DNA from: Lingula anatina
Lineage: Eukaryota > Animalia > Brachiopoda
Length of the DNA stretch: 64,000 nt
Reading direction: 5' to 3'
NCBI GenBank assembly: GCA_051362555.1
Contig: CM120647.1
Location: 5,394,001 to 5,458,000, forward strand
Shown: positions 6,440 to 46,129 of the stretch, piece after piece
Layout: each line of letters starts with the position of its first letter
Numbering within the stretch: the first letter of the stretch is position 1
Notes under the pieces: generated by a model
What the model was told of the DNA's origin: nothing
Seen by the model: the letters and a program-made list of their open reading frames with translations, nothing else
Databases searched by the model: none
Made by a program: the position numbers and the translations under genes

Positions 6440-9400
6440 TTTCTTTTGTTCTGAGAAACACTTCCGATTCCCTACAGTTACAAGGCACACCTGTTAAACT
6501 GTCATTGTCAACCATGTCTGCGTGTAATCAGATTTTGGACAGTAGCAAGATCTCCGGTTTATCCGTGCGTGCATAAGACGGTTTCGAGAGAATTACCTTA
6601 CCACCCTGTTACACGAGAGACGTGATACCAGCCAATCGCGATCATATTCCATCCCCCGGCATCGCCCGCCAGTGGCCCCATCTGCAACCGATTGCTGATA
6701 AATTGATTCCTCGAGGCGACTTTGAAGTAGGCTTACTCATCGGGTACAACTGCCCATCCGCTTTATTCCCGCGAGAGGTCATACCCCCTATGAATGACGG
6801 CCCTTACGCTCTTCGTACTAGCCTCGGTTGGAGTATAGTGGGAACGGGACTCGTTAACTACGATGGTGACCCAGGTTTCATAAGTCATCGTGTGATGATC
6901 CATGAAGTGTCCCCAGAAGTCAAGTCGTCATACCAAATGAACGAGAAAGTGATCTTCTGCAAACCGAATCGTATCAAGGAAATATTTGTACCAAAGCACG
7001 TTGCGCAAATGCTAGAACTCGATTTTAACGATCAACGGCTTGATACTGTCGCGCCTTCCCGTGAAGATTGCCGGTTTATAGACATACTCGAGAGAGGCAT
7101 CCACGTCACGAACGACGGACATTACGAAATGCCGTTGCCGTTTAGAAAGGAAAATCCTGTTCTACCCAATGACCGAGAATTAGCTGTGAAACGCTTGTCG
7201 TCTTTGCAATCGCGTTTTACAAAGGACCCAAACTACGCTCGCGAATACGCGAAATTCATGCAGACGCTGATAGACAACGGACACGCTGAAAGAGTCACGA
7301 GTGACGTCAGTAAATGTACATGGTATATTCCCCACCATGGAGTGTACAATAAACAAAAACTGCGTGTTGTATTCGATTGTAGTGCACGATACAAGAACAC
7401 GTCGTTGAACGAACATTTACTGAAAGGACCTGACATGACCAACTCTCTAATTGGTGTTCTGCTGAGATTTCGCCATGAAACGGTCGCGTTCACGTGTGAC
7501 ATTGAGAAAATGTTTTATCAATTTCGTGTCAACGAAGAACACCGAGACTATTTGAGATTTCTGTGGTTTAAAGACAATGACTTTGAATCAGAACCTGTTG
7601 ACTACCGCATGTGTGTTCATTTATTTGGAGCAACCTCTTCTCCCGGCTGCGCATCATTTGCTTTGAAAAAGATGGCCAGTTTACACGAACATGAATGCGG
7701 CTCCGATGTGAAACACTTTATTCACAGAAATTTTTATGTGGACGATGGATTGAAGTCGACTGCTACTGAATCAGATGCCATAGAACTTCTGCGCCGATCC
7801 AGACAGCTTTGTGGGAAGCGAGGCATTCGTCTTCACAAGGTCATCTCGAACTCTAATGCAGTCATCCAATCAGTTCCACTTGGTGATCGAGCACACGACT
7901 GTGATGTCATTGATATGAATGCAGACAAGTACTCACCTGAGAGAGCCCTTGGTGTTCAATGGTGTGTAGAAGTTGACCAGCTTCAGTTCCGAATACTACT
8001 CAAGGATAGGCCATTAACTCGACGTGGTGTATTGTCTACGATCAGCTCGATCTTTGACCCACTTGGATTTGTTGCTCCAGTTGTCATGGTCGGCAAGCGC
8101 ATTCTACAGGAACTGTGTGCTGAGAATTTAGACTGGGACGACCCCATACCCGACAACTTTTGATCACGGTGGGAGCAATGGAGGCTTGGTCTTCGCTCAT
8201 TGGAATCTATCAGTTTGAAACGCTGTTACAAGCCGCCTGAGTTTGGTTCAGTGTCAATTGCTGAAATGCACCATTTCTGTGACGCCAGCGCAGGAGGCTA
8301 TGGAGAGTGTTCGTATGTACGGCTCGTGAACGAAAGAGGACAAATACACTGTTGTTTACTCATGGGTAAAAGCAGGGTAGCACCGCTTAAGGCCGTTTCC
8401 ATTCCGAGACTTGAGCTGACAGCAGCCACCGTATCTGTGAAAGTAGCGTCTCTCCTACGCTCCGAGCTGGAATTTGAGAAACTGACTGAATACTTTTGGA
8501 CAGATAGTCGGATAGTACTCGGGTACATCAATAACGAGGCACGACGATTCCACACTTACGTAGCCAACAGAGTACAAGTGATTAGGGACTTCACCGAGCC
8601 AAACCAGTGGTTGTACGTTTCATCAGAGATCAACCCGGCTGATGTTGCCTCGCGAGGTTTATCTGCCATCGATCTGGCTAATCATGAGCATTGGTTTCAC
8701 GGACCTTCCTTTTTATGGGAAACAACGATCGCTTCTACGGAACAAAATGATTTTTCTCTTCTCCAAGACGACCCAGAAGTGAGGCAAGCAGTATCAGCGT
8801 TGTCTACGTCATCCCACGTGTCAATTCTGGATCGACTTGAACGTTTCTCGGATTGGTACAAGGCGCAACGGGCCATCGCCGTCTGCCTACGCTATCGCCG
8901 AATTTTGCGTCGAGAGGGTCAGAAGGCACACTCGCCAATCACTGTTGACGATATAAAAGGAGCGCGAAATTAAATTTTCAAACACGTGCAGGCCGAGGCA
9001 TTCCCGAATGGAGATAAGGAACAGTCTCTGAGAAAGCTCAACCCTTTCTTTGATAAGGAAGGACTTCTGAGGGTTGGAGGACGAATTCGCATGTCACCTA
9101 TGCTGCTTACGACATTCGTCATCCTATTATATTACCCAAATCTCATCATATTACATCGCCATGTTTACAGCACGCGCACCGATCATGCGGTCATCAAGGC
9201 AGAGGAATGACAGTTAACTACCTTAGGTCAACTGGCATATGGATCATTTCAGCTAGCTCAGCCGCGTCGAAACTGATATCCAACTGCGTTGCATGTAAAA
9301 AGACGAGAGGTTCAGTGGGAGAGCAGAGGATGGCAAATTTACCCGCAGATCGCTTGACAGAAAGCCCCCCGTTCACATACGTCGGCGTTGATTGTTTTGG

Positions 9401-10343
9401 TCCGTTCACCGTGAAGGAAGGAAGAAAGGAGGTCAAACGTTACGGTGTGCTGTTCACATGTCTTGTATCACGGGCTATTCACATTGAGGTGGCAACCGCG
9501 TTGACAACGGACTCCTTCATAAACGCATTGCGTCGATTTCAAGCAATACGTGGACCGATCCGATTGCTGCGTTCAGATTGTGGTACAAATTTTATTGGAG
9601 CAAACAACGAGCTTAAAAGAGCACTCGGTGAAATGGATCAGCATACTTTGTCAGAATTTTTGAGGGAACGACAATGCGATTACATTCAATTTGAGTTTAA
9701 TGCACCGTCGTCCAGCCATGCAGGAGGAGTCTGGGAACGTCAAATCCGAACTGTGAGAAATGTTTTGTCTTCTCTGCTTGAGCAGTCACAGTCTCAATTG
9801 AACGACGAGTCGTTACGGACATTGATGCATGAAGTGACCGCAATTGTTAATTGCAGACCTCTTACCTCTGACAACCTAAATGACCCATGTTCCCTTGAGC
9901 CATTAACCCCCAACCACTTGTTAACCACCAAAACAAATGTTATTCTCCCGCCTCCTGGTGAATTCCAGAAAGCAGACATGTATTGTAGAAAACACTGGAG
10001 AAGAGTTCAGTATTTATGCAATCAGTTTTGGTTAAGATGGCGCAAAGAATATTTGCAAACCTTACAAGTGAGACAAAAATGGTTAAGGCCTAGACGCAAT
10101 TTCTGTGTTGGAGATATTGTTTTGATTAAAGATGAGAATTTACCAAGAAATCTTTGGTCATTAGCAAGAGTTGAAAATGTTTATCCCAGTGATGATGAGC
10201 ATGTCAGAAATGTCAGAAAAGTCAAAGTAGCAATGAGTACTCATGCATTAGATTCTGCTGGTCGAAGGTTAGATCCAAGTGTGTTTTTAGACAGACCAAT
10301 TCAGAAGTTGGTACTTTTAGTTCCAAGCACTGATAATAATTAA
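6440..10343 (+). pseudogene. BEL/Pao pol (protease C-part, RT, RNase H, integrase) with stops and a frameshift
   Basis: WYIPHHGV, LRVVFDCSA, DIEKMF, HLFGATSSP, FYVDDGL, HHFCDAS, PRLELTAA, FWTDS, NPADVASRG, HHCC, GVDCFGP, SDCGTNF, GGVWER. Stops at 6574-6576, 8161-8163 and 8971-8973; frameshift near 9090. Confidence 0.95.
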
Positions 10344-11094: not shown

Positions 11095-11353
11095 TGTAAC
11101 TGCAACACGTGGAGCAGTGATTAGTGCGAGTAGTCAGTGAGATGTGTTCATGTCACATGACACTCGGGTATATAGTTTAGATCCCGCCCTTACATTTTCA
11201 GTTTCAGCAACACGGGTCTCCGGGATCATATAGTTTTATGTTTTCATTAGTTTTCATAAGTTTTCATCAGTTTTCATCAGTTTATTCAGCGAAATACAAT
11301 CTATTCAAACCAAGAACGCTTTTTGAGTTTTTAACGGTACGGTCACGGCAACA
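11095..11353 (+). repeat. 3' LTR (259 bp)
   Basis: Near-identical to 158-416 and followed by TSD CACAT. Confidence 0.97.
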
Positions 11354-12829
11354 CACATAACATAGCAGATAAGCAAAAAAAAAAAAAAAATGAAGAATCA
11401 CTATAGGCTGGCCCAGCAAGAAAGACTAAAGTAAAGAGAAGAAATTAGGGTATACTGACAGAGAGTCAAGTAAAAGCAGAAACCCAACAATCCTGAAAAC
11501 AGTAGAACAAGAGGTGCAAATTAACGAGAAATAAAAAAGAAGAAAAGACTCAAAAAACAGGAATCAATACTGAAACAAAAAAACCAAACAAACAAACAAA
11601 CAAAAATGAATAAATAAAAAAGGTCAAGCAACAGAAAGAAAAGTTTATATTAAAGTCTGGTGAATGAAAGTCAAACTGAATGGCACACAACCAAGCTCCA
11701 GCATCCACTGAAAAACGTGCTGAGTGTTTCTCCAAAAAACTTTTTGATTAATACATGTACTTGTATTATTTTGGTTAAAGTACTGCTGTTATATCTTTAT
11801 TTTGATATTTTTTTAGAATGTTGGCAAAAATAACTGGTAAACAACATGATATTTCAGTTACAAAAGTATCAGTTACTTGAATGTGTAGTGTCCGTACCCC
11901 CAGATCATATATTTAGCCTAAGGGGCGTTCTTTTAATTTGAGCGTAGCACAAAAAGTAATCAATATTGTGTTCTAAAAATGTGGATGTCATAGTTAAGAT
12001 GTAATTCTTTTTATCTGTTACAAAATTAAACAGATGCATCAGAGTTCATTTTTTCTCTCAATGTGACTGCTGTTTTGTATCCCTGATTGTGATACAGCCC
12101 ATTGTATTTTCTTCCCCCTCTGAAAAAAGCACTTGCTGCTGACGGGGAAGGTTTATATAAGGTGTGATAACACATTAAAAGCTAGTATATTGAGAATGCT
12201 ATCACACATATTTGGACACTAGAGAAAAAGGTCTTACTTAAATCACTTTAAGAATGATTCCGTTTTTGATACCGGAAAAGTGTACGGCTCTTGATCTACT
12301 ATCTAGCCTAAGAGTAAGGAACATAACAGCAGCAGCGCACACAACACTTCCAGCCATATGCATGGCTTTAAGCTAAGGAAGCCAATTAAAAACTCATTCA
12401 ATGCCCCACATACTTAGGTTCAACTAAATTGTTGTGTCTTTATACACACACACACACACACAAAAATATATTGTCCTAAAATAGTAAATAACATGTTTGT
12501 TTTATGTTAAAGAACAACATGGCTTCGGCCCTTGGATTCCAGAGAGTATAGAGTCTTGAATGGGTTTTTAATTAACTTGACCTATATTCAAGCATACGGC
12601 TGAGGGTCTGCTTTTAAGTGCTGTCTGCTGCTTCATCTGCATTTGGTGTTCTTATTAAACTCGAAGTCTGCCTTCAGATTCACACATCGTACTAGCTGGG
12701 TCGGTCCAACTCTGCGGCGGCTCTCAATTAGGTATAACCAAGGGTATCAGTTTCATTACACCCCAAGTCACATTAAAATATCCCCTGTATCCATGCATCA
12801 GAAAAATAGGCAGATTTTTTTAATGGACG

Positions 12830-13850
12830 AAAAATACTGCCATGTTTGACTATGAATACTACAATTTATAACATAAAATGCAACAGGGTCAATCGGATAG
12901 TAGACACATGGTGTCAATATACACTTATAAAGAAATATTACAATAATATATAAACATTCTGTATTCCACCATTTTCAATAATTTTCATGAAGACTTGTAG
13001 ACATTCCGCCGGTCTTCTTTAACCAGGCCTGCTTCCATTACTACTAGAAATTTATTGCTGTAAATCTTGTGTGCAAATCTACATGAAAAGATGAATATTT
13101 CATGTAAAACGTGAACAGGAAATAATATACACCATCATGATACACATTTACTTTTGTATGTAATACCACTCTGATTTTATATTACAGACCTCCATTATTT
13201 TACCGTTTGCTTCTATCATGCAATCATTATACTGGTAGATGGTTTAAAATAAATCTCTACAGAACATGCAAAAATTGTTCAGAAGGTAGTTTGAAAGTAA
13301 CAAAATGCTGCCTTTACAGATACGAAGAGAAAGAAGTGACAGGTTTACTTAAAATATAAAAGTATGAAGACTTTTAAAAATGGACGCAGAAAATTGCGAT
13401 GTTTGACATTGATTGGCGCAATTTATACTATAAAGATTAACAAATTCAATCACATGGTAAGCACATGGGATCAATAAACGATTATTAGAATAAATATTAA
13501 AACAAATCATAAACATTCTGTAATCTACCACCTTTCATAATTTTCATCATAATATGTAGACATTCCACCTGTCTTTCTAACCCAGGCATGCTTTTGTTAC
13601 TACTACACTTTTATTAAAGTAAATCTTTTGTTCAAATCTATTTAAATAAGTGAATAATCCATGTGAAACGTGAACTGGGAATAATATACACCATCGTCAT
13701 TAATATTAACTTTCGTAGGTAATACCAAGCTGATTTTATATAACAGGCCTCCATTATTTTGCCGTTTTGTTCTATCACGCAAGCATTACAGACGGTTTAA
13801 ACAAAATCTCCACAGAAAATGCAAAAATTGTTTAGCAGGTAACGGCAGAG
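12830..13850 (-). repeat. Tandem ~560-bp duplication of the last codons and 3' UTR of the GT32-pyruvyltransferase gene
   Basis: cctccattatttt...ctatca at ~13188 and ~13747. The CDS end (cagaa.atgcaaaaattgtt) recurs at ~13260. The same duplication is in the pseudogene copy (~40060-41100). Confidence 0.8.
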
Positions 13851-16800
13851 CGTCCCAGGTTTGGTAGCGTTCCCATACGCTTTTGACAATTTGTTATATA
13901 GATGCACAGAAAAGGAATCTTCGCTGACTTTGCCTTTATCAAGGAAACATTCTCGTATAACATTAGGCCACTCAATAGGATAAAACGATTGCCGATACAA
14001 ACGTCTGACAATGCATGACTCATTTTTCAATACGTCTTCAAAATTGTTCACGTCACACATCCACGTGCTATGGTTTCTCGCCACGCGGGTGAGGAGATGC
14101 GGTCCATTTGCCGCCCAACCTATCTCCGTATAGTTAAGGAGGTATTCTTTAATACACTCACGGATAAATGGATTGTGTTTATCAAATTTTAGAACAGCGT
14201 TATTTAACTTGGAATTTTCTCTATTTTCCCAGGCAGTTACATTATTCAAAAAATGTAAACTCTTCACCAAAATAACGTCAGTGTCCATGTAAACGCCACC
14301 GTACAGATATAACAATATCAACCTGATCAAATCACTTTCATGGGCATACCAATTTGGTCCTTTTGAAATAACGGGTATTCTTTTCAAAAACGCTGTCGAG
14401 CGACCTGCGAAAGTGTCTGGTTCCAGATTTTCAATTCGACTTAGTAAATTTTCGAGAGTATAGTTCTCGACCTCTACTTGGAAACCTGCCTCACTGAACT
14501 CAGAAAACGCTTTCTGTGTCAAAACATTGCTTAAAATGCATACTTTCGTATTTGGATAGTGGTAAAATATACTCTCGAGTGAACGGCGGTTCCACTTTGT
14601 CTGATCATTCGTTGTGTACACTTGATAGAATACCGATTCAGTTTTTTCATTTTCGTTGAACTGCCTGAAAGTTTTGAAGGGTGCGATTCCAAATGTTATC
14701 GCCGTTTCCCGTAATGCGCGGAATTTTCGTATCTCGTACCACAAGGTGGCTCGAAAGCGCATGTAGATTTCTCGATTTGGGTTCATTTCCGGTTTGTCCC
14801 AATTAAAGCTCTCCAGGCCTCGGTAGGTTTTCATCATACGGTCTACAGTAACTGTGTGAAAAAGTTCTGTTAAGCCCTCAGTTCGACGCTTTTCACCTCC
14901 AGGTAGGACATCAGTTTCTACAAAAACTACTGGAATTCCCATGGCAACGCAAGGAAGCGCGCAATGGATACTCGAGGTTATAACTAATTTTGCGCGTGAA
15001 TATCTTTCCATCAAACTTTTTGTCGCTTCGTAACGTGTTAATCTATCAAATTCCTTCGAACTGGGCAAGTTATGGGTGACGTATATCGCTGATTTTCGTA
15101 TTTGATATGGAGCAATTAATTCTAGAGCGCTTTTGTTCACATCAACGACAAATATATCCTCTGTTTTAATGGTTGGATTGGGATTGCGCATTAAAAGTGT
15201 CAAACAGCCCGATTTATATACTGAAATATTTTGGAATTTTAAGAAATTAAAAGTGACGTCATCTCGAGCCCCCACAGGGCCGTGATTCCGAAGGTAATTT
15301 CTGCCAGGCTCAGCTAGTAATTTCTCCCAGAAATTTGATCCAAAATGTATCGATAAAATCAAAGGGTTTAAATTAACTTTTGGTGGCCACATCATGTTGC
15401 CGGCGTTATACCATCCATTAAGAAATATTGTGATTGCTTCTTTGAGATTATCTCTTTCGTTGGAAACAATGGACCCACTTCTATGCTGATCTTTTGTATC
15501 TCTTGTTTTAGATATTGAATTACCTGCATCATTTTGGGTCATGTACAAGGACGGATTTGTTGCCTTTCCATGACTTTGTGTTTTAGTGTTTTCTTCCCAA
15601 AAAGTGTCAGGATTCTCCGACTGAGCAAATGTCTTTACTACACTGGTGACGTTCCAAGTATCCCCGTCCACAAACAGGTCAACAAAGGGAAGAAATTGTA
15701 GCCCTGCTAACGTTTGAATTTCATCGTTGATGTCCCTCGCCACCTTCACTCGATGGTCAAATGTTAGGATCCCAAAGAGTTCATCTTGCAAAAAGGGTGT
15801 AACAGAATCTGCACCGTCCTTTTCAACTTGTCTCTTATCTACCTGACTTAGAACTTTTGATTTTAGTAAGACTGAAGCAGTGTCCCAATTTTGGATTTGA
15901 CTTCTACTGAGACTGCTGTAGGCCGACTGAATCTCGACCATAGCATTTTTGACGAACAACGAATGTCGTTCAAACCTGGATACGAAAAAGATGCCTTCAG
16001 TGGACATCCATTCCCCTGTGAAATATTCAACTGGTAAATTTGACGGCACTGTTCTTTTTACATCCATGTAAAGTCCACCAAATCTCCATATTGCAAGTAA
16101 AACACTTATTTCATGTACGACTGCCATAAATTTACGACCCATGAGCAATTTTAGAATGGCAGATTTAGACACAAAATCGTCTAGTGGTGTGCCCTGAGTC
16201 AACTCAGATATTAGTAAACGAAGTACTGTTACGTGTTTCCATGACTTGGCGTCTGTTTGATCTATACATCCACTGCTTCCGCATAAAATTACAACGCGTT
16301 TTCCTGGATGCAACTGGAGAAGGGTCTCAATTTTATCCATAAACGTTTGTGGAATTGCGGTATAATGCGACCAGACCAAGACAAAGTCTGATGTCGTATT
16401 CTGATGTTGACCCAAGTGATGTTGTGCTGCAGTTAACGATTCCTCTTTGTAGGATGCTGACGTAGGAGATTTGAAACTACCAGTATTGTCTGGTCTGACA
16501 GCCGGCATTACTTTTGTTAACTGGGAAAGATGGCCCTTCTTATTCTCCCGGTAGATGGTTTCTCCGGAGGTAACAGTCCTGTTCATAGCCACTAATTTCC
16601 CACTCGTGTTAACTCCCGCCACTGCTGACGACAGGACTGAATTACCAATAAATATATATAATAATATGATAGTGACATTAAAATATATGAAGATTAGTCC
16701 CTCAATACATGAATAATATTGAAACTTGAAAATGTATTCTTTAATATATAAATAAAAGTATTTTCAAATATGCCCGATTGCACACAATGCTTGAATGTTG

Positions 16801-17062
16801 ATAAATCTACAAGAAACATAATTAGAATTATAAATTAAATTTTGATTAAGGACTCCAAAAACAGGATTTATATATACATGCTATGAATGAGCTGTACTCT
16901 CTTTAATGGCGAATAATGCTTACTTTTAAAACCGTTCATGAATTCGAAGATGTAAACCAATGCCCATATTATTAACAACAGTACAGGTAGACGGGCTGTC
17001 CGCCTCCGACCAAGACATCTGCGAAGTCTCATCACCGTAGATCTCATCTGACAATATACCAT
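13797..17062 (-). CDS. Type II membrane multidomain glycan enzyme: degenerate GT32-like + polysaccharide pyruvyl transferase-like + alpha-1,4-glycosyltransferase (GT32, A4GALT/A4GNT-like), ~992 aa
   Basis: Exon 1 17062-16924 (basic tail, TM LPVLLLIIWALVYIF, donor GTAAGC). Intron 16923-16637. Exon 2 16636-13797 joins in phase 1. Motifs: IWRFGGLYMD; NDEIQTLAGLQFLP, NGWY, PVGARD, SGCLTL, YSRAKLVITSSIHCALPCVAMGIPVVFV; SDLIRLILLYLYGGVYMDTDVIL, WAANGPHLLTRV, SVHLYN. Confidence 0.88.
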
Positions 17063-17730
17063 GCAGGCTGCCGGAGTGATAACTCCTAGAGACAAGATCC
17101 TCAGATTAAATGACGTGTCTCGCGCACGTCGTAGCTGCTAGTATGATGTGTACAATTAATAATAAACGTTGAAAAGCAATTCATGTTCTAATAATAAGAA
17201 AAACTGTGAAACGGAGACGTAACAGTAGACGGCGCTCTACTTGTGGTATAATTCATGAATTAATTATTTTTGAACCACAAGAAAAAAGAACGAAACACAT
17301 TAAAAATGTACATTTTATAGAGCATAAAATAAAACTGAAACACATGTATAGCTGGAATAAGTAAAAAAAAAAACTAGATGTTAACCTAGCAGGCTCCAAC
17401 ACTATTACCATAGCTTCCCATGACCTGTGGAGAAAAATACTAAATTTTAAAACATGTTCAAGCGCTGATGCATGGGCGGTAACCATAGTAAGCCTCCAGT
17501 TGTCTTAGCTTTTGGTCACATGTATGCAAAGCAGGTGCTCGGATCAAATATTAAAGAAGATAAGAAAAAAATAAATAAAATAAATAATACACTTCTGAAA
17601 GTAAAGAAAAAATAATACAAAATCTCGATTAAAATAAAACGATACAAATTGGAAAACCGCTGCTGGTGAGACAGCTGGCGCAGAAGGTAGCCGGGTATAC
17701 CGCTGCTGGGTAGACCGCTGTGAGGAGAGC

Positions 17731-18195
17731 CGGTGAGAGAACCACTGCTGGAGATACTGCTGAAGTGTAAGGCTGCCAGGTAGACCGCTGAGACGAGGGT
17801 CGGCGAGAGTCACTGCCGCTGCATGCTGTCAGGACCCACTGATGCTACCGTTGAGAGTGCAGGCCGAACAGTAGAAAATGCCCAGCTACATATTTACAAT
17901 TGGGCTGGAGCCTTAAACTGCTGTAGAACCGGTTGTAAAATGTGTTTGCTTGCAAAATGCGGATCTACTCCTTCTTTCTACGACCAAAGCTATGCCAGTT
18001 TCATGGTCGCACAAAGAACGCGCAAAGGACGCCATCCATTGTTTTGTCAATAGAGAGTTCACTTCCTCTCTGTCAAAATTCCGTTTTATTCTTCTTTACA
18101 TCTTTTTATCAATACAGGAAGACACCGCTTTATGTATGCCATTGTGTCTATTACTCCTCTACCACACTGAAGATAAACATTACATGTGGCAAATG
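17731..18195. repeat. Segment present in inverted orientation at 34424-35045
   Basis: For example ctcctctaccacactgaagataaac here vs gtttatcttcagtgtggtagaggag, and gcaaaatgcggatctactccttctttctacgacc is shared in reverse complement. Confidence 0.85.
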
Positions 18196-18386
18196 AAAGA
18201 TACTCGATGTCCAACGATTTGAAAATATTAAAAAAATCGATTAGAAAATTCCAGTGCAATATGAGAAAGAGACCTAATATAAGTTATTGGATATCTTCAA
18301 TGTTATCAAACCGTTTAATCAAAACGTTATGAGGACTGGTGTCTTTGTATCAGTCGCTTGAGTTTATCTTAGTCCAACTAACTACG

Positions 18387-18662
18387 CAGGTGCGGATCCA
18401 GGATTATTTGAAGGGGGGGGGGGTGTCTGTGGATGCAAAGTCGACCCTCCCTCCCCCTTTCCCTCCTTGGCGTGAGGTTTGGGCCTCCGAAAAAATATAT
18501 TTTTTAGAGGGTGAACGGTGCATTTTGGTACATTGGTATGATTCAGCTAGCCAAAAGTTTAATTTGAAGAGGAGACTATCGGTGTGTTTTGTTTTCAGCA
18601 ATCTAAGGGAGAGTCAGGACCCCCCCCCCCTCCTCCCCGACACCCCTCTAAATCCACCACTG
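18387..18662. mobile_element. hAT-like MITE (CAG..GCGGAT ends); same family at 44966-45198
   Basis: caggtgcggatccagg...ccctctaaatccaccactg with G/C-run subterminals. Interior similar to the second copy. Confidence 0.6.
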
Positions 18663-19154
18663 CTTGGTTTTACTTTTTTATATAAGAACAGGTTACATAA
18701 AGACAACTTATTCTTAAGATCTCAGTCAATTTGGAAATTACTTTTGTTCTTGGGGTACTAAAAGAAAAGATTGAAGGAAAATACATGTAGCTGATAAAAC
18801 AATCCATTTTCCAATGCACTGCATACGTTACATTGTGTTTTTTTTTTTTATAGTTTCAATTTTATTTAATTGTTTAGCTTGTGATTTTTTTCTTATTAGC
18901 ACACACATTCAAACAATTAACTTGGCCACGGTTTGCATTATGTGGATTTTCATGATTGTGATAGAGTGGAACAAATGACTTCAGGCATGCACGTGGTCTT
19001 TAATGAACACAATGCGGTGAGCGTTTTCAGTTTAATGTTCGTACAATGTATTACTGACAATATGGTAGAAAATACATTGCATTTTTACTTATGTTACATT
19101 TTAAAGCGTTAAATAGAAATAGTAAAATGCCAGTAAGCACAATAAACATATATA

Positions 19155-20778
19155 CAGGGTTACTACTTAATATGGAATATTAATTTTTGGCAAGTAAGTT
19201 TTCTACGAAATATTTGTTTTCTCTCTAACTATATTAAATCCAAAACTGAGGTGTCACTCCATGTGTAGCCAGGTGTGTTACCTAATTACCACACAACTCT
19301 CGAAACAATTGATGCATGCAATTACATGTTCTAAAGTCAGATATGTGAGGGGTGGTCTTTTCGGCAATTTTTGCCCTTGTATAAGAACGCATGCGTTTGG
19401 TCAATCTTTAGAGTGTGTTTAGAGAAGCAACAAAGGGATCGCTCTGAACCTTAACAGGTACCTTAGAGAAGATATGGTTCGACAGATAAGCAACGCAGCT
19501 TACCATCGGATTCTTGCTCTCAGAGAAAATGACCAGAAACGGACAGCCATTGTCAGGCAATTCAACATTTATCAGGAAGCGTTACTAAAGTACTCCATAG
19601 AAATGCTACAACAGGGGCGCCTACTTCAGTACCTCGATCGGGTTGTCCGCGTATCACCCCAAGAAGATGGGATCGCCTTCTCCTTAGAGTGTGCCGTGCT
19701 GGTCGTACAAAGACAACCATTGTCCTAAAAAAAGAGTGGCAGAATATCATTCAAACGCCCGTTTCAAGGTCCATCGTGTAAAGAGATTACTGCAAGACCG
19801 TTATTTTGCATGTATACCAGTTGGGAAACCACTGTTAACAGCAAGTCATATATAGGCACGTCCGTAATGGGCTGGAGACCCCTTGCGTTTGCAGCCAAAA
19901 AAACTGGAATCACGTCGTTTTCAGTGATGAGGCCAGATATGGATTTTTGGGAGTTGACGGTCGGATCCGTGTCCGCCGACGTGTACTAGAGGCATAAAAT
20001 GATGATTGCGTACTGTCTAGGGTGTAAGCAGGGGGTGGTTTCGTCTCTGTTTGGGGAGCATTTCATACCGGTGCCCAGAACCAGTTGGTTTTTCTAGGAG
20101 GCAACCTCAACCAGGATTCCTACAGAGACATTCTACAGCAAACAGTGCTTCCCTTTGAAAGTGTCAACTTCAGGAACAACTTGTGTACCATAACGACTAC
20201 GCACACCCACATCGAGCTCGCAGAATCACTGTTTTTCTTCAAAACCGGTGGGTTCAGCAACTGTCCTGGCCTGCAAACTCCCCAGCTATGAACCCAATTG
20301 AAAATCTGCTGGCGGAAGTAACTTACAGAATTACTGTGATAGCTATGGTCATCGGCCGGTAAATAGTGATGGACTGCGACAGGTAAATATCACTACGTCG
20401 AATGATATCCCCATCCAAACTCTTAAAAACTTATCACAGGGTATGCCATGTAGGATGAGAGCGTTGCAAGCGGCTGCTGGAGGTCATACCCGCTATTGAT
20501 GACTTTTCATGACTTACTGTAATGAGTTCTTCGCCTGTGTAACGTATCACTGTCCGGAGGCTATCATTTTTATTAATATCTTAGGTTAAAGTTAAAACTG
20601 ACATCAAACTGTTGATATGGTTTTCTGGGGGTGTTCTTTCTTTTGAATGACATCTTATGTCAGATTTGATATTATTGACCAAAATATCTCACAATAGAAG
20701 ACTGGATATTTTTTATCACTCACTGACATACTTTTTTGATGAATCAAGCCAATTTTTTTTAAATTAGCACTCAAAAAT

Positions 20779-20780
<2 letters not shown>
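19155..20780 (+). mobile_element. Decayed Tc1 (DD34E) DNA transposon; transposase remnant ~19474-20499
   Basis: TA|CAGGGT left end. Fragmented WNHVVFSDE, GGGFVSVWGAF, HPHRAR, WPANSPAMNPIENL and terminal GGHTRY*. Right end unclear, runs into (TA)n. Confidence 0.85.

Positions 20781-20784
<4 letters not shown>

Positions 20785-20869
<85 letters not shown>
20785..20869. repeat. (TA)n microsatellite
   Basis: Direct reading. Others: (TG)n ~20954, (CA)n ~22774, (TG)n ~25050, (TTA)n ~25857, (AT)n ~42503 and ~55493. Confidence 0.95.
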
Positions 20870-20871
<2 letters not shown>

Positions 20872-20951
20872 CTGGAATTAATAAGTATACGTTCGTTTCA
20901 TTCATGGAGGCGTAGGCCTGTAGGTACAATGATTTCGTTATTTCTTATCTT

Positions 20952-20988
<37 letters not shown>

Positions 20989-21053
20989 ATGTGTGTGTAT
21001 TTTGATGGGTGAAGAAAAAGTGAATATATTGGTATATGTTGCTTTGTTCCATA

Positions 21054-22697
21054 CAACATTGGTCAAAAAGGTTGTCCCACCCCCATTTCCATGTACTTAT
21101 ATTTACAAATGATCACCTCACAGATGCAAATTTTTATAAACGATGCTTTTTATTCCAGATATCATGTTAAACATGATTAATGGTTCCAAAAATACAAAAT
21201 AGTGGTGAAAATATACACATTTTATACCATTTAGTAAAATTTATAAGAGGTACCCCCTCAAATCCAATGTTTCACTGTGATTTCTGCAGATGTAAAGAAA
21301 TGTCTATTAAATTAAAAAGGCGCCATCAAATGTCATCAAATTCACACACAATTAGCATTAGGGTGTGCTCGGTAAAGGTCACGTGCCTAATAGCGTGTGC
21401 GTCTACCGCGTACTGCAATTACCCCCTGTAGACGGCGCGACAAGCCTTCAACACTGGTAACAATTCTGTTTTATGTGATATTGTCCGATTCTTCTTAAAC
21501 AGGTTGGGGAGTTGGTCCTCGTTTTTATGGGGTTGGTTCTCCTCTGCATTGCACACTCCAATTCATGTCGCAGTTGATTAGTAAGGTTAATACCAGGGCT
21601 CAAAGATGGTGGTTCCATGCTTAGAGCATTGTGTTTCTACAACAAATCACTTGCCAGGCGAGAGGTGTGAGCAAGTGTGCAGTCATGATGAAGCCTGGAG
21701 TTAATCCAAAAGTCAGTTCTTGTAGATGGAGTGAGATAACAGCTGAGAATGCTACGTTCAGTGATCCCACAGGCACCTGAACCTGGCCATCCATCACTGG
21801 AAGGAAGTCGGTTTTGACGCAATATCAAGTTATTTCTTGTATCCCATCGATGGTCAAATGAGGGTCCGTAGACATGTTGAAAAATGCCTCTTGGAAGGGT
21901 GTGTGCAGAATAATATCGCCTGAGGTGTTAGATCAGTCCGCATTTGGAGAACATTCCCAGCCCATGGTATTAGTACATTGTTCCTTTTTAAAGAAAACGT
22001 AACTGGGGCATTTCACTGTAACATTCTCAGCAGAATCTCACTCCATTTGCAAGAGGTGACTTCAGGGATGCTTCTGGCTTCATTGTGACAACGCACTTGC
22101 TCACAGTTCTCGTTTGTCAAGCGATTTGTTGGATGGGACAACCGTCTGTGAGTCCTGATATTAATCCTACTGAGCACCTGTGGCATTAATTGTAATGTGC
22201 AATGCAGAGAAGAACCAATTCCTAAATAATCTGGACCAATACCGCCACGCTCTTTAGGATGAATGGGACAATATCCCACAAAACACAATTGTTACCCTGG
22301 TTGAAGGCTTGTCGCGCCGCCTACAGGAGATAATTGCAGTACGCGGCAGGCAGACACGCTATTAGGCACGTGACCTTTAACGAACACATCATAATGCTAA
22401 TTGTGTGTAAATTTGGTGACATTTGATGACGTCTTTTAAATTTAATAGACATTTCTTTACATCTGTGGAAATCACAGTGAAACATTGAATTTAAGGGGTA
22501 CCTGTCATAAAGTTGACTAAATGGTATAAAATGTGCATATTTTCGCCACTATTTTGTATTTTCCGAACCATTAATCATGTAAGACACGGTATCTGGAATA
22601 AAAAGTACTATTTCTAACAATTTACAGCTGTGAAGTGATCATTTGTAAATAAAAGTACATGGAAATGGGGGTGGGACAACCTTTTTGACCAATGTTG
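21054..22697. mobile_element. Tc1-derived fold-back element with long inverted arms
   Basis: TA on both sides. Termini caacattggtcaaaaaggttgtcccaccccc and its reverse complement. Inverted homology extends ~650 bp and includes transposase C-terminal motifs. Confidence 0.9.
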
Positions 22698-22771
22698 TAT
22701 GTAATTAAAAATTATTGTAAATTATCCAGGTGAATAGTCTCAAATCAGGGGAGTTGTACTCGCCCCCCCCT

Positions 22772-22822
<51 letters not shown>

Positions 22823-23187
22823 TTGTCTTAGGACAATGTTGTCTTGTCCTGCTAGACATTGAAATATTGGAGTAAAAACTTTTTTTCAATATTAAGCTGT
22901 TGACTGAAGAAAAGAACACATTCTAATACAGGTAACATAACACCGTTGATGAAATATTTTCACATTGATCCACATTGATCTACTCAGTTGGTTGATGTAT
23001 TGCCAATCATCCTGCATTGTCACCGACTCCAGTGAAAAATATATAGAACATTGCACTGCGACAATGCGCTAAAATAAACACTGACTCAGCCATGAAAACA
23101 ATTGGATTTACAAAATGATGACCAGTGAAAATAACTGTGCTATAAAACTGCTCCCACTTCTACAATCATAACATACACATTCAGGAA

Positions 23188-23572
23188 ACCCTCTACCAGA
23201 GCCGCAGGTTGATTTTTCACTTGATAATCTTGGGCGCTGAAGAAAAATAAACATAATTAATCTGCGGCCATTGAAGAGGGTACACAAAGGCTGATTGAGT
23301 CTCTCTCTCGCTCACTCACTCTCTCTCTCTCTCTCTTGAATAAAAATAATTAAATTATCACAATGAATACTGACAGTCCGTTGAAGGATGCATAGTGTTT
23401 AGAACCCGTCTTACACTGTCGAACCATCGTACAGCAATGTGAACAGCCATAACGTTAATTTGGAATGAACTGATATTGTTGATATTTGGTAAAAGATATG
23501 TGGGGACTTGTATCAATACGTGGTTTGGTATGTACTTTAAAAACATCAATATAGGTATTTGGAAGACCGCTC
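23188..23572. mobile_element. Dispersed hairpin-headed repeat, copy 2
   Basis: accctctaccagagccgcag...ctgcggccattgaagagggt, similar to 5146-5512. Confidence 0.65.
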
Positions 23573-23918
23573 TCACCTCGCTCTAGAATCCCCGCTGAGG
23601 TAGATAGATCCTGCTTGATAAGGTTATGGGAACCCAGTCTAAGATGTACAAGACAGACAAGGAAATATTGGTGGTAAGCAATATCAATGTTAGCCGTTAA
23701 CTGAAATAAATTTATTTACTCTTAAAACAAATCATAAGATAACGCCGCCATCTTCAAAAGTCATATAAAATCATTCATATATAATGCACAACATAAAGGT
23801 ACGCCACTACATTATTTATGATATCGCATAGCCTTTCACTAGATGAGTTACCGGTGGGACTGCTTATAAATCGAGGTAGGTTCTTTTATCCCCTTATGGC
23901 CAAAGCAATAGTTGTTCG

Positions 23919-36244: not shown

Positions 36245-39200
36245 CTTATTTTCTCCTTCCCAGTTAACAAAAGCAATGTCGGTTGTCAGGCCAGCCAATA
36301 CTGGTAGCTCCAAATCCCCTACATCAACATCCTATAAAGAGGAATCGCTAACTGCAGCACAGCATGACATCCGATTTTGTCATGGTCTGGTCGCATTATG
36401 CCGCAATTCCACAAACGTTTATGGATAAACTAGAGACCTTTCTTCAATTCGTGTCCAGGTTTGAAAGACATTCGTTGTTCGTCAAAAATGCCATGGTCCA
36501 GATTCAGTTGGCCTACAGCAGTCTCAGCAGAAGTCAAATCCAAAATTGGGACACTGCTTCAGTCTTACTGAAGTCAAAGGTTCTAAGCCAGGTAGATGAC
36601 AGACAGATTGAAAAAAATAGTACAGATCCTGTATTGCCCTTTTTGCAAGATGAACGCTTTGGGATCCTAACTTTTGACAATCGAGTGAAGGAGGCGAGAG
36701 ACATCAACGATGAAATTCAAACACTAGCAGTTGACCTGTTTGTGGATAGGGATACTTGGAACGTCACCAGAGTAGTAAAGACATTTACTTAGTCGGAGAA
36801 TACTGACAATTTTGAGGAAGAAAATACTAAAAGAGAAAGTTACGGAAAGGCAACAAATTGGTATTTGTACATGACCCAAAATGCAGCAGCTCATGGCAAA
36901 TCTTACACAAGAGTTACAAAAGATCAGCATAGAAGAGGATTCATTGTTTCCAAAGAAACCGATAATCTCAAAGAAGCAATCACAATATTTCTTAATGGAT
37001 GGTATAACGCCGGCAATATGATGTGGCCAGCAAAAGTTAATTTAAACCCTTTGATTTTATGAATGCATTTTGGATCAAATTTCTGGGAGAAATTACTAAC
37101 TGAGCCTGGCAGCAATTACCTTCGGAACCATGGCCCTGTGGGTGCTCGTGAGGACGTCACTTTTAATTTCTTAAAATCTAAAAATTTCTCAGTATATAAA
37201 TCGGGCTGTTTGACACTTTTAATGCGCAATCCCAATCCCACCATTAAAAGAGAGGGCATATTTGTCGTTGATGTGAACAAACGCGCTTTAGAATTGATTG
37301 TTCCATATCGAATACGGAAAATCAGCGATAAACGTCAGCCATAACTTGCCCATTTCGAAGAAATTTGATAGATTTACACGCTGCGAGGCCATAAAAAGTT
37401 TGATGGAAAGATATTCACGCGCAAAATTAGTTATAACCTCGAGTATCGATTGCGCTCTTCCTTGGGGATTCCAGTAGTTTTTGTGGAAACTGATGGCCTA
37501 CCTGGAGGTGGAGTGCGTCGAACTGAGGGCTTAACAGAACTTTTTCACACAGTTACTGTACGTAGACCTCAAGATGAAAACCTACCTAGGCCTGGACAAC
37601 TTTAATTGGGACAAACCGGAAATGAACCCAAATCGTGATATCTACATGCGCTTTCGAGCCACCTTGTGCTGCGAGATACGAAAATCCCGCGCATTGCGAG
37701 AAACGGCGATGACATTAGGGATCGCACCCTTCAAAACATTCAGGCAGTTAAACAAAAATGAAACAGCTGAATCGATGTTCTATCAAGTGTACACAACGAA
37801 TGATCAGACAAAGCGGAACCGCCGTTCACTCGAAAGTATATTTTACCATCATTCAAACGCGAAAGTACGCATTTTAAGCAATGTTTTGACACAGAAGGCG
37901 TTTTCTGAGTTCAATGAAGCAGGTTTTCAAGTAGAGGTCGAGAACTATACTCTTGAAAATTTACTAAGGTGCATTGAAAATCTGGAACCAGATACCTTTG
38001 CAGGTCGGTCGAAAGCGTTTTTGAAAAGAATACCCGTTAATTCAAAAGGACCAAATTGGTGTGCTCACGAAAGTGACTTGATCAGGTTGCTATTGTTATA
38101 TCTGTACAGTGGCGTTTACATGGACACTGATGTCATTTTGGTAAAGAGTTAAAAAGTTCTGAATAATGTAACTGCATGGGAAAACAGAGGAAACTCAGTG
38201 TTAAATAACGCTGTTGTCAAATTTGATAAAAATAATCCATTTATTCGTGAGTGTATTAACCCCATAGCGCCGGGAACCGCACATATGCGGTTCATTTTAA
38301 AAAGTCCTCAGTGCCGGGAACCGCATATACGCGGTTTCTGTGTTTACATGCTTGTACTGTCCCCTGTCTTTTGTAACAATTCATGCTTCTATCACAAGAC
38401 TAACTTAATGTTAGTTTTTTGTTTACTACCGGCTTTTGAAAGACGTGTAGCGAGAATTAGATAATTTCAACCATTGTCGAGGCGCTATGAAGTCATAGTG
38501 GCGACGAGAAGTCAGCAGAAGTTATGGGTTGATATATGTTTTAGATTTGTTAGAAAATTAAGACTTCGGGGAAGAGTCCTTGATAGATTTTGATACTCCG
38601 ATAACTTCAAAGATGATGTACCTTTGCCTAGTATGAGTTGTCAGAGAGCAGATTCGGACGTGGGGCTTGATTTATGAAAAACGCTGATGATACTAACGGC
38701 AGTCACCAAGCAGACGACAATAGTAATTGGAATGGCTATATTGCTGATAAAATGACTGTAACTGTGGCAAGTCAGGCTAAATGTTGCCTTGTGTGCTGCA
38801 TCAACATGTCTTTTCCTGCTTGTGCATAAATACAAATGTCATATGTTACGTTGTACTGCATCAGCATGTCCTTTCCTGCTTATGCCTAAGTACAAATGAC
38901 ATATGTTTACTTGTGTGCTACATCAACAAATGTCTTTTCCTGCTTGTGTATAAATACAGATGTAATATGTATACTAGTGAGCTGTATCAACATATCTTTT
39001 CCTGCTTGTGTATTAGTACAAATGCCATGTTTACTTGTATTTTTATGATGTAATTTTTATTCACGAAAGTGTGATATTTGCTCATGATAATGTTTGTATT
39101 CTTGTATATGGTTTGAGTGCTAAACAAAATTTTATGAGTATCCTGGTTCAGTTGATTAAAAAACTATGAAAAGCTATCGTAAAAAGCACTGAATTTACAA

Positions 39201-40097
39201 TCTATTTGTAATTATAAAAGTAATTAGGTGGAAGTCTTCTAGTCAGCTAGCCTGCCTGTATATATATATATTGTGCAACTCTCTGACATGATGCAGGTTT
39301 TTAGGTACAGCACGCATCCCAGAAAATTTATTATATCTCAAAAACTAAATAAGGTATCTTTCTGAAATTTTCTGACATTGTTAAAAACATATTTTGGATG
39401 TTTATGAGAAAATTTCAACAAATTATTTGGTAAAGTGAAAAAGAATGTGCATGCTGAAATTAAAGTTTTGTTTTTTACTTCTCTTCGAGAAAAGCAAGTC
39501 TCATATTTAAACTCCTGCTATTTCTACCTAAGTTAACAAATGTGAATAAAACTGATATGAATTTAAAGCTTACATTCTTGGCTTTCTAAAAATGTACAGT
39601 TTTTAGGTGTTTTCTAAAGAAGTGAATACATTATCATTCATTAAATGAGGCCGCCTGTAAAACTGAGTGCATCCGGGTAGAGGGCTCAGGACCAAGGGCA
39701 CTTTCTAGGTCAGATGCTGCCAGGCTCTATGGGGTTAAGGAATACCTCCTTACATGTAACTATAAGCAGAGAGGTTGGGGGGCAAATGGGCCGCGAATTC
39801 TCACCAGTGTGGCGAGAAACCATAGCAAGTGGATGTGTGACGTCAACAGTTTTGAAGATGTATCGAAAGATAAGTCATGCATCGTCAGACGTTTGTATCG
39901 GCAATCATTTTATCGTTTTGAGTGGCCTAATGTTACACGAGATTGTTTCCTTGATAAAGGCAAAGTAAACGAATAGTCCTTTGCTGTGCATCTTTATAAC
40001 AAAATGTCAAAAGCGTATGGGGATGCTCCCAAGCCTGGGACGCTCTGCCGTTACCTGCTGAACAATTTTTTGCATATTCTGTGGAGATTTTGTTTAA
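36245..40097 (+). pseudogene. Inverted pseudogene of exon 2 of the GT32-pyruvyltransferase-GT32 gene
   Basis: Collinear peptide matches to 13797-16622 (TSDFV.VWSHY, NGWYNAGNMMWP, NWDKPEMNPNR, GVYMDTDVILVKS, final CGDFV*). Has several stops and frameshifts, a 327-nt deletion and a piggyBac-type insertion. Confidence 0.95.
38260..39734. mobile_element. Non-autonomous piggyBac-type element inserted in the pseudogene
   Basis: TTAA|CCCCATAGCGCC ... GGCTCTATGGGG|TTAA. Removal restores gagtgtattaa(g/a)gaatacctc. Contains a ~60-bp tandem repeat (~38780-39040). An internal part is related to ~32096-32330 and ~54334-54550. Confidence 0.9.
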
Positions 40098-42582: not shown

Positions 42583-43963
42583 AGCACCTATTATATTAGC
42601 AGATATGACGTAAAGAATATATATATTTACTACTGAAATCCTAAACTGCTTCTTCAACTAAATCAATACGTCAAAACCATGTATAGGTTTGTGAAAAGTA
42701 TTTTAAATGAACATGATGCTCTGCAATAACAGGATATTAATTGAAACTAACGCAATGTCTCGCGTGGATATCAACTAAAATGGTAAAGCATCTCAACAAA
42801 TTATGCACGCGGTACTTAAATTATGCAATGATGCTTGAGGTACTCTAATTTGCATAACTAAGTACAGAATTCGTCGAGAACTGCCGACCTTCCGACGTCT
42901 CTTTTATTTTGTAAATATTTATAAGAGGGCCTTGTCGATATTTCCAATGTTTAGGTACATGTAGTACGTGAAATGATATAGTGCTGTTTATAATCTAATA
43001 TGCGGTCTGCCATAACTACCTCCTCAGTACATGCTTGACCAATACCTATGGTACAGGTTCCTAAGTCAGAACGACCTTGGATACAGTATGGTAAAATATA
43101 CCATTATCAAGCATCCCATTTTAGATTATGCATCGCTGGTTTGCAGTTGTCTGCAGTGAGTCATATCGGAATTCATGGGCTGAAATAAGCACCTATTATA
43201 TTAGCAGATATGACGTAAAGAATTTATCATTCAACAACAAATATCTCACTGTTTCAATATTAAGCTCCAATTCCCATCCAGAAAGGGGCCTCGTTTTGGC
43301 TCCCAGCGAATATTATGTTAGGTCTTGTTAGGTCACTGGATCGGTGCATAAACGAGGTAATTGTACCCTACGGCTATATATCTATCGGTGTGTGCGAGTG
43401 TGTGTGTGTGTGTGTGAGTTATTTTGTTACATAATGAATGCATAAATTGCTTTACTCTAAAACAGACTCATCAGCAAATGCAGACATTGTAGAAAATAAG
43501 GGAGACGTGGGATAGATGGCCCAGTTAGACAACTTGTAGAGCCAACTTGGAATGAGTTAGGGCAGCAAACCCAGTTTTAAAGCAAGCGGGATGGACGTAG
43601 CTATGTATGCAATGCCATTGTTTTGCAAATATAATGTCACAGGGCTGACATTTGACAAAAACAAAAAGCCCGCATCTTTCGGCAGGGGGGGCAACTTCCT
43701 TACGGTTCTCAATGTATTCTAAAGCACTTGGTGTATTTTTTCACAGTTCTAATGTTGTTGTATAATGAATAACGATTCGAGAACTGTCTTTGGGAGGTCC
43801 TTCAGAATGTCTTACAACAGATTAAGAACTAAGAACGAAGAACCCAAAAAACAGGGTTTACAAGTTGTAACTATCTCAATGATCTTGGCTCTGCTGCATG
43901 TATCTAATAGGCTATAAATCAGGTGTACGTTATTCTATGCCTTTAATGGCAAATGATGCTTAC

Positions 43964-44102
43964 TTTCAAAACCGTTCATGAATTGCAAGATGTAAATCAA
44001 TGCCCCTGTCATTAACAACAGTACAGGTAAACGGGCTGTCCGCCTGCAATGAAGACATCTACAAAGTCTCCTCACCGTAGATCTCATCTTACCATACGCC
44101 AT
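43964..44102 (-). pseudogene. Orphan copy of exon 1 (signal anchor) of the GT32-pyruvyltransferase gene
   Basis: MAYGKMRSTVRRLCRCLHCRRTARLPVLLLMTGALIYILQFMNGFE followed by the conserved GTAAGC donor. No same-strand exon 2 nearby. Confidence 0.85.
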
Positions 44103-46129
44103 AGAGGCAGGCGAAGTGATAAATCCAAGAGAAAAGATCCTCAGATTAAATGACGTGTCTCTCGCACGTAGCTACTGGTATGATTTGAACAATTAATAAT
44201 GAACGTAGAAAAGCAATCTGTGTTCCAAGAATTAGAAAAACTGTAAAACGGTGACGTAGCAGTATACGGTGCTTCACATGTGGTATAATTCATGCATTAA
44301 TTATTTTTGAACTACAACAAAAAGAACTAAACAAATTAAGAAATTAAAACATTATTGTTCATAAATTCAGACTGAAATACATGTATAACTGGATTAAGTG
44401 AAAGGCTAGACGTTAACCCATGGGCGAAACCAGGCATACGCACGGATGCACTGTAGTTGGACCAACCATAATATTATTCTCTATAAATTCAGTGTATTTT
44501 TCAAGGAATATAATCGAAAATCCCCTTCGGTTGTTAGTTAACGTCACCTGTTTGTGATATATATGCCACAATAATTGGTTGATCCCTGCAAAAACCTGTG
44601 AAAGTGTGTAGGATTAGTAGACTGAGAAACTCATGCAAGGAAAGAAAATTCGGGTAAAAAATAAAGAGATGGCACATTAAATCATATGGCTGGGGTCGTA
44701 AATGACCCCACATGGTCTGGGACAGATTGAGAACCGTAGGTGGGCGTTAAATGAGACATTTTTTTTTTTATTTATTTGCAGGGGTTGTCCGGTGGCTCCC
44801 CTCCCCCCCCCCCCTCACCCTCGTACTCACAAATCTTGACAGGACTCCGAACATGAGCACAAACAACGTGTAGAATAAGCCTTATTAAATTTAGGATTTA
44901 AATTTATTTTCAATTCCAATTTTATTCAACACACAAACACATACAGAGACACACGACGGACAGACCAGTGACGGATCCAGGATCATTTAATGGGAGGTCC
45001 GCGGGTTCAGGGCCCACTGAAGGCCCCGAAAATATTTGGTATTTTAGAGAGCGAACAGTACCATTTGGTACGGTTTAGTACAATAGATCAGACAGTCAAA
45101 TTTTAATTCCAAGAGGAGAATATTAATATGCTTTTTTTAAGAAAGCGAGGGGGTGTCAGGACCCCCCCCCCCCGAGGCCCCCTCTAAATCCCTGACTGAG
45201 CTTTTAATTGAAATTCATTTCTTTACTCTAAAAACAAATTATAAGATAACGGCGCCATCTTCAAAATTCATATTAAAACCATTGATATTTAATGCAAAGC
45301 GTAAAGGTGTGTCAAAACAGTCATCGCTTGAATTTCTACTAGATGACTTACCAGTGGAACTGATTTTAATAGAGGTACGTTCTTTTATTCTCTTACGACG
45401 AAGACAATAGTCGATGTTGATGGGGAGGGGGGGGTAAAGTTTTGTTGATATTTTATTAGTTGGTTTGTCTTAGAACAATAGAAGTTAACTGCATTTCAGA
45501 AGCCTAAGCTTCGACCAAGAGCTCAAAACACCATTTTCTGAAACAGGTCCCAAGTGGTTGTCTTCATATTCAGTCTATGGCAATAACACTGCTTAAATTA
45601 ATGTCAACTGGCAGTTTCCTTATTATTGTGGTCAGCATGAACCAAGTACATATGTATCACCTGGAATTAATCATCGTGCACTTTTAGTAGCTAGCGTCAT
45701 TTTTGCTCCAGCTAAAATGGTTTCATAAGTGTTGAATCAGCACTCAATTCATATCTGCGGTCTTCATTTTAACCACGTTCAATAGTATGTAGAGTAAACC
45801 AACAGCACGGAAACCTCGTCACTGACTAAAAGCGCAGGTAGTAAATTCATGTCTGGGTCGTTCATTTGTGCGTTTGTGCTACAAAAGCTTGGCCTCGTGT
45901 AGGAAAACGGCAATTATAGTTCATGAGGCATGTGGTAGAACTATACCCCAACTTCTTAATGCAATGCAAGGCAAGGAAACACAAACACCTTAAAATATAC
46001 GACATACACCAATGCATAATCCTATCCGCTACCTACCTCAATATATCAGAACGGGTGCTACCTGTGGCACTGATAACTTAAATACATTTAAACATTGTTT
46101 CTATGGTATTTCAACTGGGTTAATATATA

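Follow-up and report, generated by a model that had tools for sequence, protein, structure and literature searches.

The 64,000-nucleotide stretch of Lingula anatina DNA analyzed here (GCA_051362555.1, contig CM120647.1, positions 5,394,001 to 5,458,000; hereafter the window) carries on its reverse strand a gene whose predicted product sets a PF04230 pyruvyltransferase-fold domain between two GT-A domains, the last of which belongs to glycosyltransferase family GT32. We propose that the gene belongs to a new architectural variant of ketal-pyruvyltransferases, a marine-invertebrate, uncharacterized family acting in the Golgi, and that the window copy works as an alpha-glycosyltransferase only, by way of GT32. 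To this reading as a whole we assign a probability of roughly 55%. That the family ketal-pyruvylates glycans is its firmer part and, judging from sequence, probable; that the window copy is pyruvyltransferase-dead yet GT32-active is favored with rather less assurance.

The middle domain spans 14673..15791 (reverse strand), residues 283-655, where residue numbers refer to P0001, the product of exon 2, and the full chain is numbered P0001 + 46. An earlier sequence-only reading had assigned it to PF04230 and supposed a fold like that of fission yeast Pvg1, and both calls hold. The domain scores 51.8 bits against PF04230, twice the gathering cut-off of 25.3 (E 1.4e-13). An AlphaFold model built from 70 aligned sequences, used in place of a single-sequence fold with a predicted local distance difference test score (pLDDT) of 37, reached a pLDDT of 83 and a predicted template modeling score of 0.84, with low confidence only at residues 1-67 and in an insert at 337-394. 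It splits into GT-A (79-282), GT-B (283-655) and GT-A (663-946) domains. When residues 283-617 were superposed with VIA-align, the best match was 5AX7, Pvg1 (Z 13.7-14.3, root-mean-square deviation 4.3, 247-251 residues aligned), followed at Z 12.9 by 6X1L, the pyruvyltransferase WbbZ (PMC10629545). Other GT-B enzymes match at Z 9.3 or less (8.8-9.3). A profile of the domain found two matches among PDB sequences, the better being Pvg1 (E 0.0026), with TsrlH aligned to TDRLH. Among the matches listed by Foldseek, the PDB rows held GT-A proteins only, and phmmer with the whole protein against PDB returned nothing beyond weak GT-A matches. The middle domain is thus predicted to adopt a two-Rossmann GT-B fold like that of Pvg1 and WbbZ.

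The active site of this copy is where it parts from its relatives. The motifs conserved in PF04230 enzymes are NxGD, RxxxS/T and a His, and a model of Pvg1 has phosphoenolpyruvate (PEP) held by R217 and R337 and galactose bound by D106 (PMC10629545); the Arg and His of the Pvg1 TDRLH are numbered R337 and H339 (PMC10435577). On the reverse strand at 15723..15731, the window copy reads IN--DEIQ against INAGDEIQ in other Lingula copies, so that Asp305 is kept and two residues (xG) are gone; [N/S]xG is present in 47 of the 49 relatives from our first search. At 15663..15665 there is Gly325 in place of an Arg found in 64 of 68 relatives. RxxxS/T is intact as R458...T462, Arg458 of GARDxxT (15264..15266) corresponding to WbbZ R121 and likely to Pvg1 R217, a match made by motif and order rather than residue-level superposition. 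Ser556-Ile-His558 (14964..14972) aligns with Pvg1 R337-L-H339; Ser556 takes the place of an Arg present in 66 of 69 relatives, and the PEP-binding His (Pvg1 H339, CsaB H308) is kept as His558. Altogether the copy breaks 5 of 36 columns that are nearly invariant in the family, compared with two or fewer in 59 of 69 relatives and five or more in four. Two defining features of the active site, an intact NxGD and the R337-equivalent Arg, are missing from the window copy.

These changes can be dated against a decayed duplicate of exon 2 at 36254..40097 (forward strand), 88% identical and carrying 4 stops, several frameshifts, deletions and an insertion of ~1.5 kb. It too has the NxGD deletion and Ser556, yet it retains Arg325; two of the lesions are therefore older than the duplication, whereas the change to Gly325 came after it. 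Synonymous divergence (dS) between the two copies is ~0.2.

The sequence-only reading had taken the gene for a bifunctional enzyme, and the strongest alternative to a dead pyruvyltransferase domain, which we consider unlikely, is that the window copy is just that, with a remodeled active site and PEP supplied by a separate transporter. Several observations favor it and weigh against our own view. D305, R458 and H558 are all retained within a confidently predicted fold, the two main lesions are older than the duplication, and the PF04230 core has stayed constrained, with a nonsynonymous to synonymous rate ratio (dN/dS) of 0.41. Activity would be lost through Ser556 if R337 is needed, as docking and conservation suggest, but Pvg1 R337A and R217A were not expressible (PMC4872226), and CsaB tolerated H308S and H308K, with R306 not among the mutants listed in the accessible part of that report (PMC10435577). 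Set against this, the motif described as family-wide (PMC10629545) is two residues short and the PEP-contacting Arg is a Ser. A further Arg was replaced by Gly on the gene's own lineage, and the three Lingula paralogues keep these sites. DEIQ and VITSSIH, quoted earlier for this domain, are the very places at which the copy departs from its family, xG being gone from the first and Ser occupying the R337 site in the second.

The case for pyruvylation by the family comes from the relatives. A search with the middle domain found 49 of them, including three Lingula anatina paralogues (58-63% identical), Asterias, Patiria, Acanthaster, Xenia and Phaeodactylum, together with many ENA, Logan and JGI proteins. 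An N-terminal PF03151 (TPT) transporter domain is present in 34 of the 49. A second search, with a fusion protein, gave 182 matches and extended the list to Hydractinia and the sponge Halichondria panicea; at least 112 of the 120 matches listed carry PF03151, a share biased by the query, itself a fusion. The family spans the brachiopod Lingula, starfish, an octocoral, a hydrozoan, the sponge and a diatom, and its common domain order is transporter, GT-A, PF04230, GT32. Named members are annotated publicly as uncharacterized or sugar-phosphate-transporter-domain proteins, and their domain content is visible there. The sole PDB sequence match of the transporter domain is the plastid translocator GsGPT (5Y78, E 4.5e-17), whose phosphate-binding residues are K204, Y339, K362 and R363, plus R266 and E207 (bioRxiv 10.1101/206912). 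Across the 34 fusions these are kept in 30 (K204), 30 (E207), 32 (R266), 29 (Y339), 31 (K362) and 32 (R363). Most of the 34 keep the Lys/Lys/Arg triad that binds phosphate. An extra hydrophobic helix precedes the enzyme domains in 102 of 115 transporter-bearing rows, so these domains would lie in the lumen. The fusion mirrors the import of PEP for Pvg1 by Pet1p and Pet2p, which we take to be TPT-family members, and offers a good, if circumstantial, reason to think that PEP is used by the domain. Pvg1 depends on these Golgi transporters for its PEP (PMC4872226).

We propose a model where, in intact relatives, the N-terminal TPT-type antiporter would bring PEP from the cytosol to the lumen by exchange with phosphate, with the additional membrane helix placing the enzyme domains on the same side. 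The GT-B domain would then move pyruvate as a ketal onto a terminal sugar, likely galactose, and free phosphate. The first GT-A domain may serve as a non-catalytic scaffold or acceptor-binding module, and the last, where its DxD is kept, would add alpha-linked galactose, N-acetylgalactosamine or N-acetylglucosamine from a uridine diphosphate sugar. The Lingula-like branch lacks the transporter and has a signal anchor alone; for the window gene, tblastn with the Asterias fusion protein found no N-terminal PF03151, the match to the window starting only at residue 381 of the query.

Loss of individual functions recurs in the family. NxGD, both Arg and the His are all kept in 108 of 139 scored relatives and broken in the other 31. 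The transporter triad is lost in 19 of 25 motif-broken relatives with a scored transporter versus 15 of 87 motif-intact ones, and GT32 DxD, lost in about half of relatives, is kept in 25 of 29 motif-broken proteins with a scored C-terminal domain versus 45 of 98 motif-intact ones. The raw Fisher p values of these patterns are 8e-8 and 1e-4; corrected for kinship, neither is significant (median sign-test p 0.625 on 9 independent pairs and 1 on 14), and the counts, being non-independent, are a lead only. One clade of eight proteins (P0299, P0305, P0307, P0311, P0317, P0319, P0321 and P0322) has lost the pyruvyltransferase motifs and kept the GT32 DxD, and all seven of its members that could be scored have lost the transporter triad. 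Two diatom relatives, P0044 and P0047, keep the first GT-A domain and PF04230 and end in GT8 instead of GT32.

Halichondria panicea connects the family to a known pyruvylated glycan. Its glyconectin self-associates via Py(4,6)Gal epitopes, of which there are ~800 per molecule (PMC11659418). The fusion is encoded at three H. panicea loci (LOC135335898, LOC135335899 and LOC135340764), all of which retain NxGD, the two Arg, the His and the whole transporter triad and have DSN where DxD is expected. The GT32 domain, which the sequence-only reading had partnered with pyruvylation, is a poor fit as maker of the pyruvylated sugar, since GT32 enzymes form alpha links and these Halichondria copies lack DxD. 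The pyruvylated galactoses of sponge and Aplysia are beta-linked (PMC6801904). Knowledge of them goes back to 1993 for sponge adhesion glycans and to 1989 for the glycolipids of Aplysia (cited in PMC7828597 and PMC6801904), and the sponge trisaccharide is treated in PMC7828597. The accessible parts of two papers that cover the sponge and Aplysia structures name Pvg1 as the sole eukaryotic enzyme (PMC6801904, PMC6994554), and a full-text search, which reached few subscription journals, turned up no report of an animal pyruvyltransferase or of this transporter fusion among the matches listed. The suggestion that this gene might encode an unassigned animal pyruvyltransferase is strengthened for the family, by the transporter fusion and the Halichondria copies, and unsupported for the window copy. 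It is tempting to speculate, and on balance we lean this way, that sponges, cnidarians, starfish and brachiopods share a one-polypeptide Golgi machine, combining PEP/phosphate antiporter, ketal-pyruvyltransferase and GT32, that makes the pyruvylated galactose of glyconectin; pyruvylation would then be an old and widespread anionic cap, with paralogues repeatedly switching off one catalytic domain.

It is doubtful, though conceivable, that the PF04230-like domain instead performs some other chemistry, such as GT-B sugar transfer or a PEP-independent substitution, and that the substrate of the transporter is another phosphorylated compound. The domain is only 13-14% identical to Pvg1 in the structural alignment, and generic GT-B enzymes are matched as well (Z 8.8-9.3). 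The ESM Atlas score of the domain is 0.88, a lead only, although its top matches are all PF04230, and we found no characterized member in the subfamily. Other results weigh against our own reading. The PF04230 scores are modest, the transporter falls far under the TIGR00817 cut-off (81-94 bits versus 317.9), which leaves its substrate unfixed, and a broken triad accompanies intact pyruvyltransferase motifs in the 15 relatives counted above. No Aplysia or other mollusc appears among the matches listed, with 62 of the 182 fusion-search matches lying outside that listing. However, the two best structural matches are proven pyruvyltransferases, 3.6-5 Z units above other GT-B folds, and the three published motifs are conserved family-wide. 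One carrier species has pyruvylated glycans, and the transporter keeps its phosphate-binding residues, a likeness judged against GsGPT. Ketal-pyruvylation remains our preferred function for the family.

For the window copy, the candidate for retained activity is the C-terminal domain (13797..14651, reverse strand; residues 663-946), which is alpha-1,4-glycosyltransferase-like. The complete GT32 domain described earlier is borne out here: PF04488 (59.4 bits) and PF04572 (73.4 bits) both pass their Pfam gathering cut-offs, the model predicts a GT-A fold, and DxD is kept within GGVYMDTD at residues 780-787 (DTD at 14285-14277). Its closest ESM Atlas cluster is 'alpha-1,4-N-acetylglucosaminyltransferase-like' (0.96). 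The N-terminal GT-A domain (15792..16403, reverse strand; residues 79-282; GT-A structural matches at Z ~14) is an internal duplicate of the GT32 domain. The earlier description of it as GT32-like stands for its ancestry, as it is homologous to the C-terminal domain (HHalign 97.7%), and falls short for its active site, which has DVK in place of DxD. With a DxD-like triplet in just 3 of 142 family rows, this domain is likely non-catalytic. Kinship of the GT-A domains to bacterial toxin glycosyltransferases was considered and rejected: PF12919 is below its cut-off, and glycogenin, UGGT and Och1 match at the same Z, which indicates a common fold.

The reading frame argues that the gene has been maintained. 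All 946 codons are open, in contrast to the interrupted duplicate, and across the 782 codons compared dN/dS between the two is 0.35, with values of 0.28 for the GT32 part and 0.41-0.55 for the middle one. Amino-acid changes polarized by the other Lingula sequences number 25 on the gene and 52 on the duplicate, with 52 unresolved. Since five of the 36 columns are broken while DxD is intact and the frame is under constraint, the copy is likely a GT32 enzyme whose pyruvyltransferase domain is inactive; most simply, GT32 would do the work and the middle domain would have been retained for its fold. That the gene as a whole is a pseudogene, young or in decay, with its frame still unbroken, as decay at one active site, the few RNA reads with none over the junction and the surrounding retrotransposons and broken duplicates might suggest, is the least probable alternative, given the open frame, the dN/dS, the 25 versus 52 changes and the intact splice sites, anchor and DxD.

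The earlier proposal of a two-exon gene with a signal anchor describes a real gene, and all the motifs quoted with it are present in the predicted protein. Coding exon 1 (17062-16924, reverse strand; 139 nt, ATG start, GTAAG donor) encodes a basic cytosolic tail and a type II signal anchor (residues ~22-45), with a hydrophobic stretch of 19 residues that peaks at residue 27 (Kyte-Doolittle 2.08). A predicted phase-1 GT-AG intron of 287 nt (16637..16923) leads to coding exon 2 (16636-13797; 2840 nt, preceded by TTCAG), which encodes the stem and the three luminal domains. The exons join in frame to give 992 amino acids with a single terminal stop, and this predicted junction would place the anchor on the same chain as the GT32 domain. 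We infer the acceptor at 16636, with further in-frame AGs close by. The type II, Golgi-like topology proposed earlier is supported, and the product is accordingly predicted to reside in the Golgi. Four RNA runs under the same species label gave 14, 9, 26 and 4 reads on the window, mostly at a repeat at 17974-18019 and just 7 at 95-99% alike. The 16924/16636 junction was not observed in them, the first-mate strand was inconsistent among the runs, and coding-exon depth was below 1.5, too low to judge expression. Upstream of the ATG, acceptor-like AG sites at 17414 and 17086 (reverse strand) suggest 5' untranslated exons, and the stretch 17730-18197 has a conserved counterpart in the duplicate. 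A copy of exon 1 and its upstream DNA lies at 43941..44403 (reverse strand), in the opposite orientation to the decayed copy of exon 2, with exon 1 itself at 43941-44102 and 70% identical.

A recent horizontal or retro origin, raised earlier on account of the uninterrupted catalytic region, is unsupported, and the trees argue against recent horizontal transfer. The trees are unrooted and were built by a quick method under LG+G4. Among 111 domain sequences, 55 multidomain eukaryote-like rows split from 56 stand-alone or bacterial-type rows with a Shimodaira-Hasegawa-like approximate likelihood ratio support of 99, the groups being defined by architecture rather than known taxonomy; 40 of the 56 are a random draw from representatives, and one Sphingomonas is the sole named bacterial-type row. 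The three Lingula paralogues form the sister group of the window gene (support 100; the same in a second tree), and all lie within a eukaryote-like multidomain group that includes sponge, cnidarians, echinoderms and a diatom. The family may have entered animals once by descent or through old transfers. Distant relatives of the middle domain number 3722 at E <=1e-10 in a representative library and are often fused to GT2, GT4-type or GT8 domains. IMG/VR holds 20 viral loci (L001-L020) 26-34% identical to the middle domain, several from giant-virus bins and outside the tree, and a JGI metagenome scan with a Lingula protein gave 33 candidates, none confirmed.

The gene lies in a local segmental duplication with inversions (13000-33000 versus 34400-55000) that holds both glycosylation genes of the window and in which the pyruvyltransferase-family copy is the decayed one. 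The other gene is a multi-exon GT92 (PF01697) gene in two copies, 26128-29963 and 49342-53185 (both forward strand), 80-89% identical. Beta-galactosyltransferases occur among GT92 enzymes, and these neighbors could supply an acceptor for pyruvylation, although the linkage may be chance. Tandem repeats of ~550 bp span the gene's final codons and its 3' region (12802-13288 and 13358-13841, 76% alike) and recur at 40052-41116, with two or three units at each gene copy. Broken Pao/BEL-type long terminal repeat (LTR) retrotransposons at 390-10343 (forward) and 46513-49324 (reverse) carry DUF1759, RVT_1, Peptidase_A17, DUF5641 and integrase zinc-binding domains; the segments 158-416 and 11095-11353, which share 99.6% identity, may represent the LTRs of a young insertion.

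Beyond the window, the family supplies named, assayable candidates for the pyruvylation of sponge adhesion glycans, including the three H. panicea loci, and the fusion suggests a route for PEP into the animal Golgi. Pyruvylated glycans would be predicted in starfish, soft corals and brachiopods. The window copy would be a poor choice for assay and may serve as a natural loss-of-function control.

Among known systems, S. pombe Pvg1p (5AX7) is the nearest in kind, being, as predicted for the window gene product, a Golgi type II protein with a GT-B fold, and sharing with the family an aligned T-x-R-x-H. Pvg1p, however, is a single domain served by separate transporters, Pet1p and Pet2p, whereas the family sets its domain between two GT-As, mostly behind a fused transporter, and the window copy, at 13-14% identity, has neither a full NxGD nor the counterpart of R337. 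WbbZ (6X1L), CsaB and WcfO, all of PF04230, have fold, NxGD, RxxxS/T and His in common with the family, but these are enzymes of prokaryotic envelopes that use cytosolic PEP, and the animal sequences group separately. A4GALT/A4GNT-type GT32 enzymes (PF04488 plus PF04572) share Pfam domains, DxD and GT-A fold with the C-terminal domain, which in the window gene is the last of three luminal domains. The phosphate translocator GsGPT (PF03151/TIGR00817) resembles the relatives' transporter in all six residues named above; in the relatives the transporter is fused to enzymes and predicted to lie in the Golgi, and the window gene has none. The closest named relatives are Lingula LOC106160055, LOC106160056 and LOC106160029, the three paralogues noted above, which likewise have a signal anchor and no transporter. 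LOC106160056 has the same three domains as the window gene, and two of the set lack most of GT32 as annotated. All three keep NxGD (SAGD in one) and the R337-equivalent Arg, unlike the window copy.

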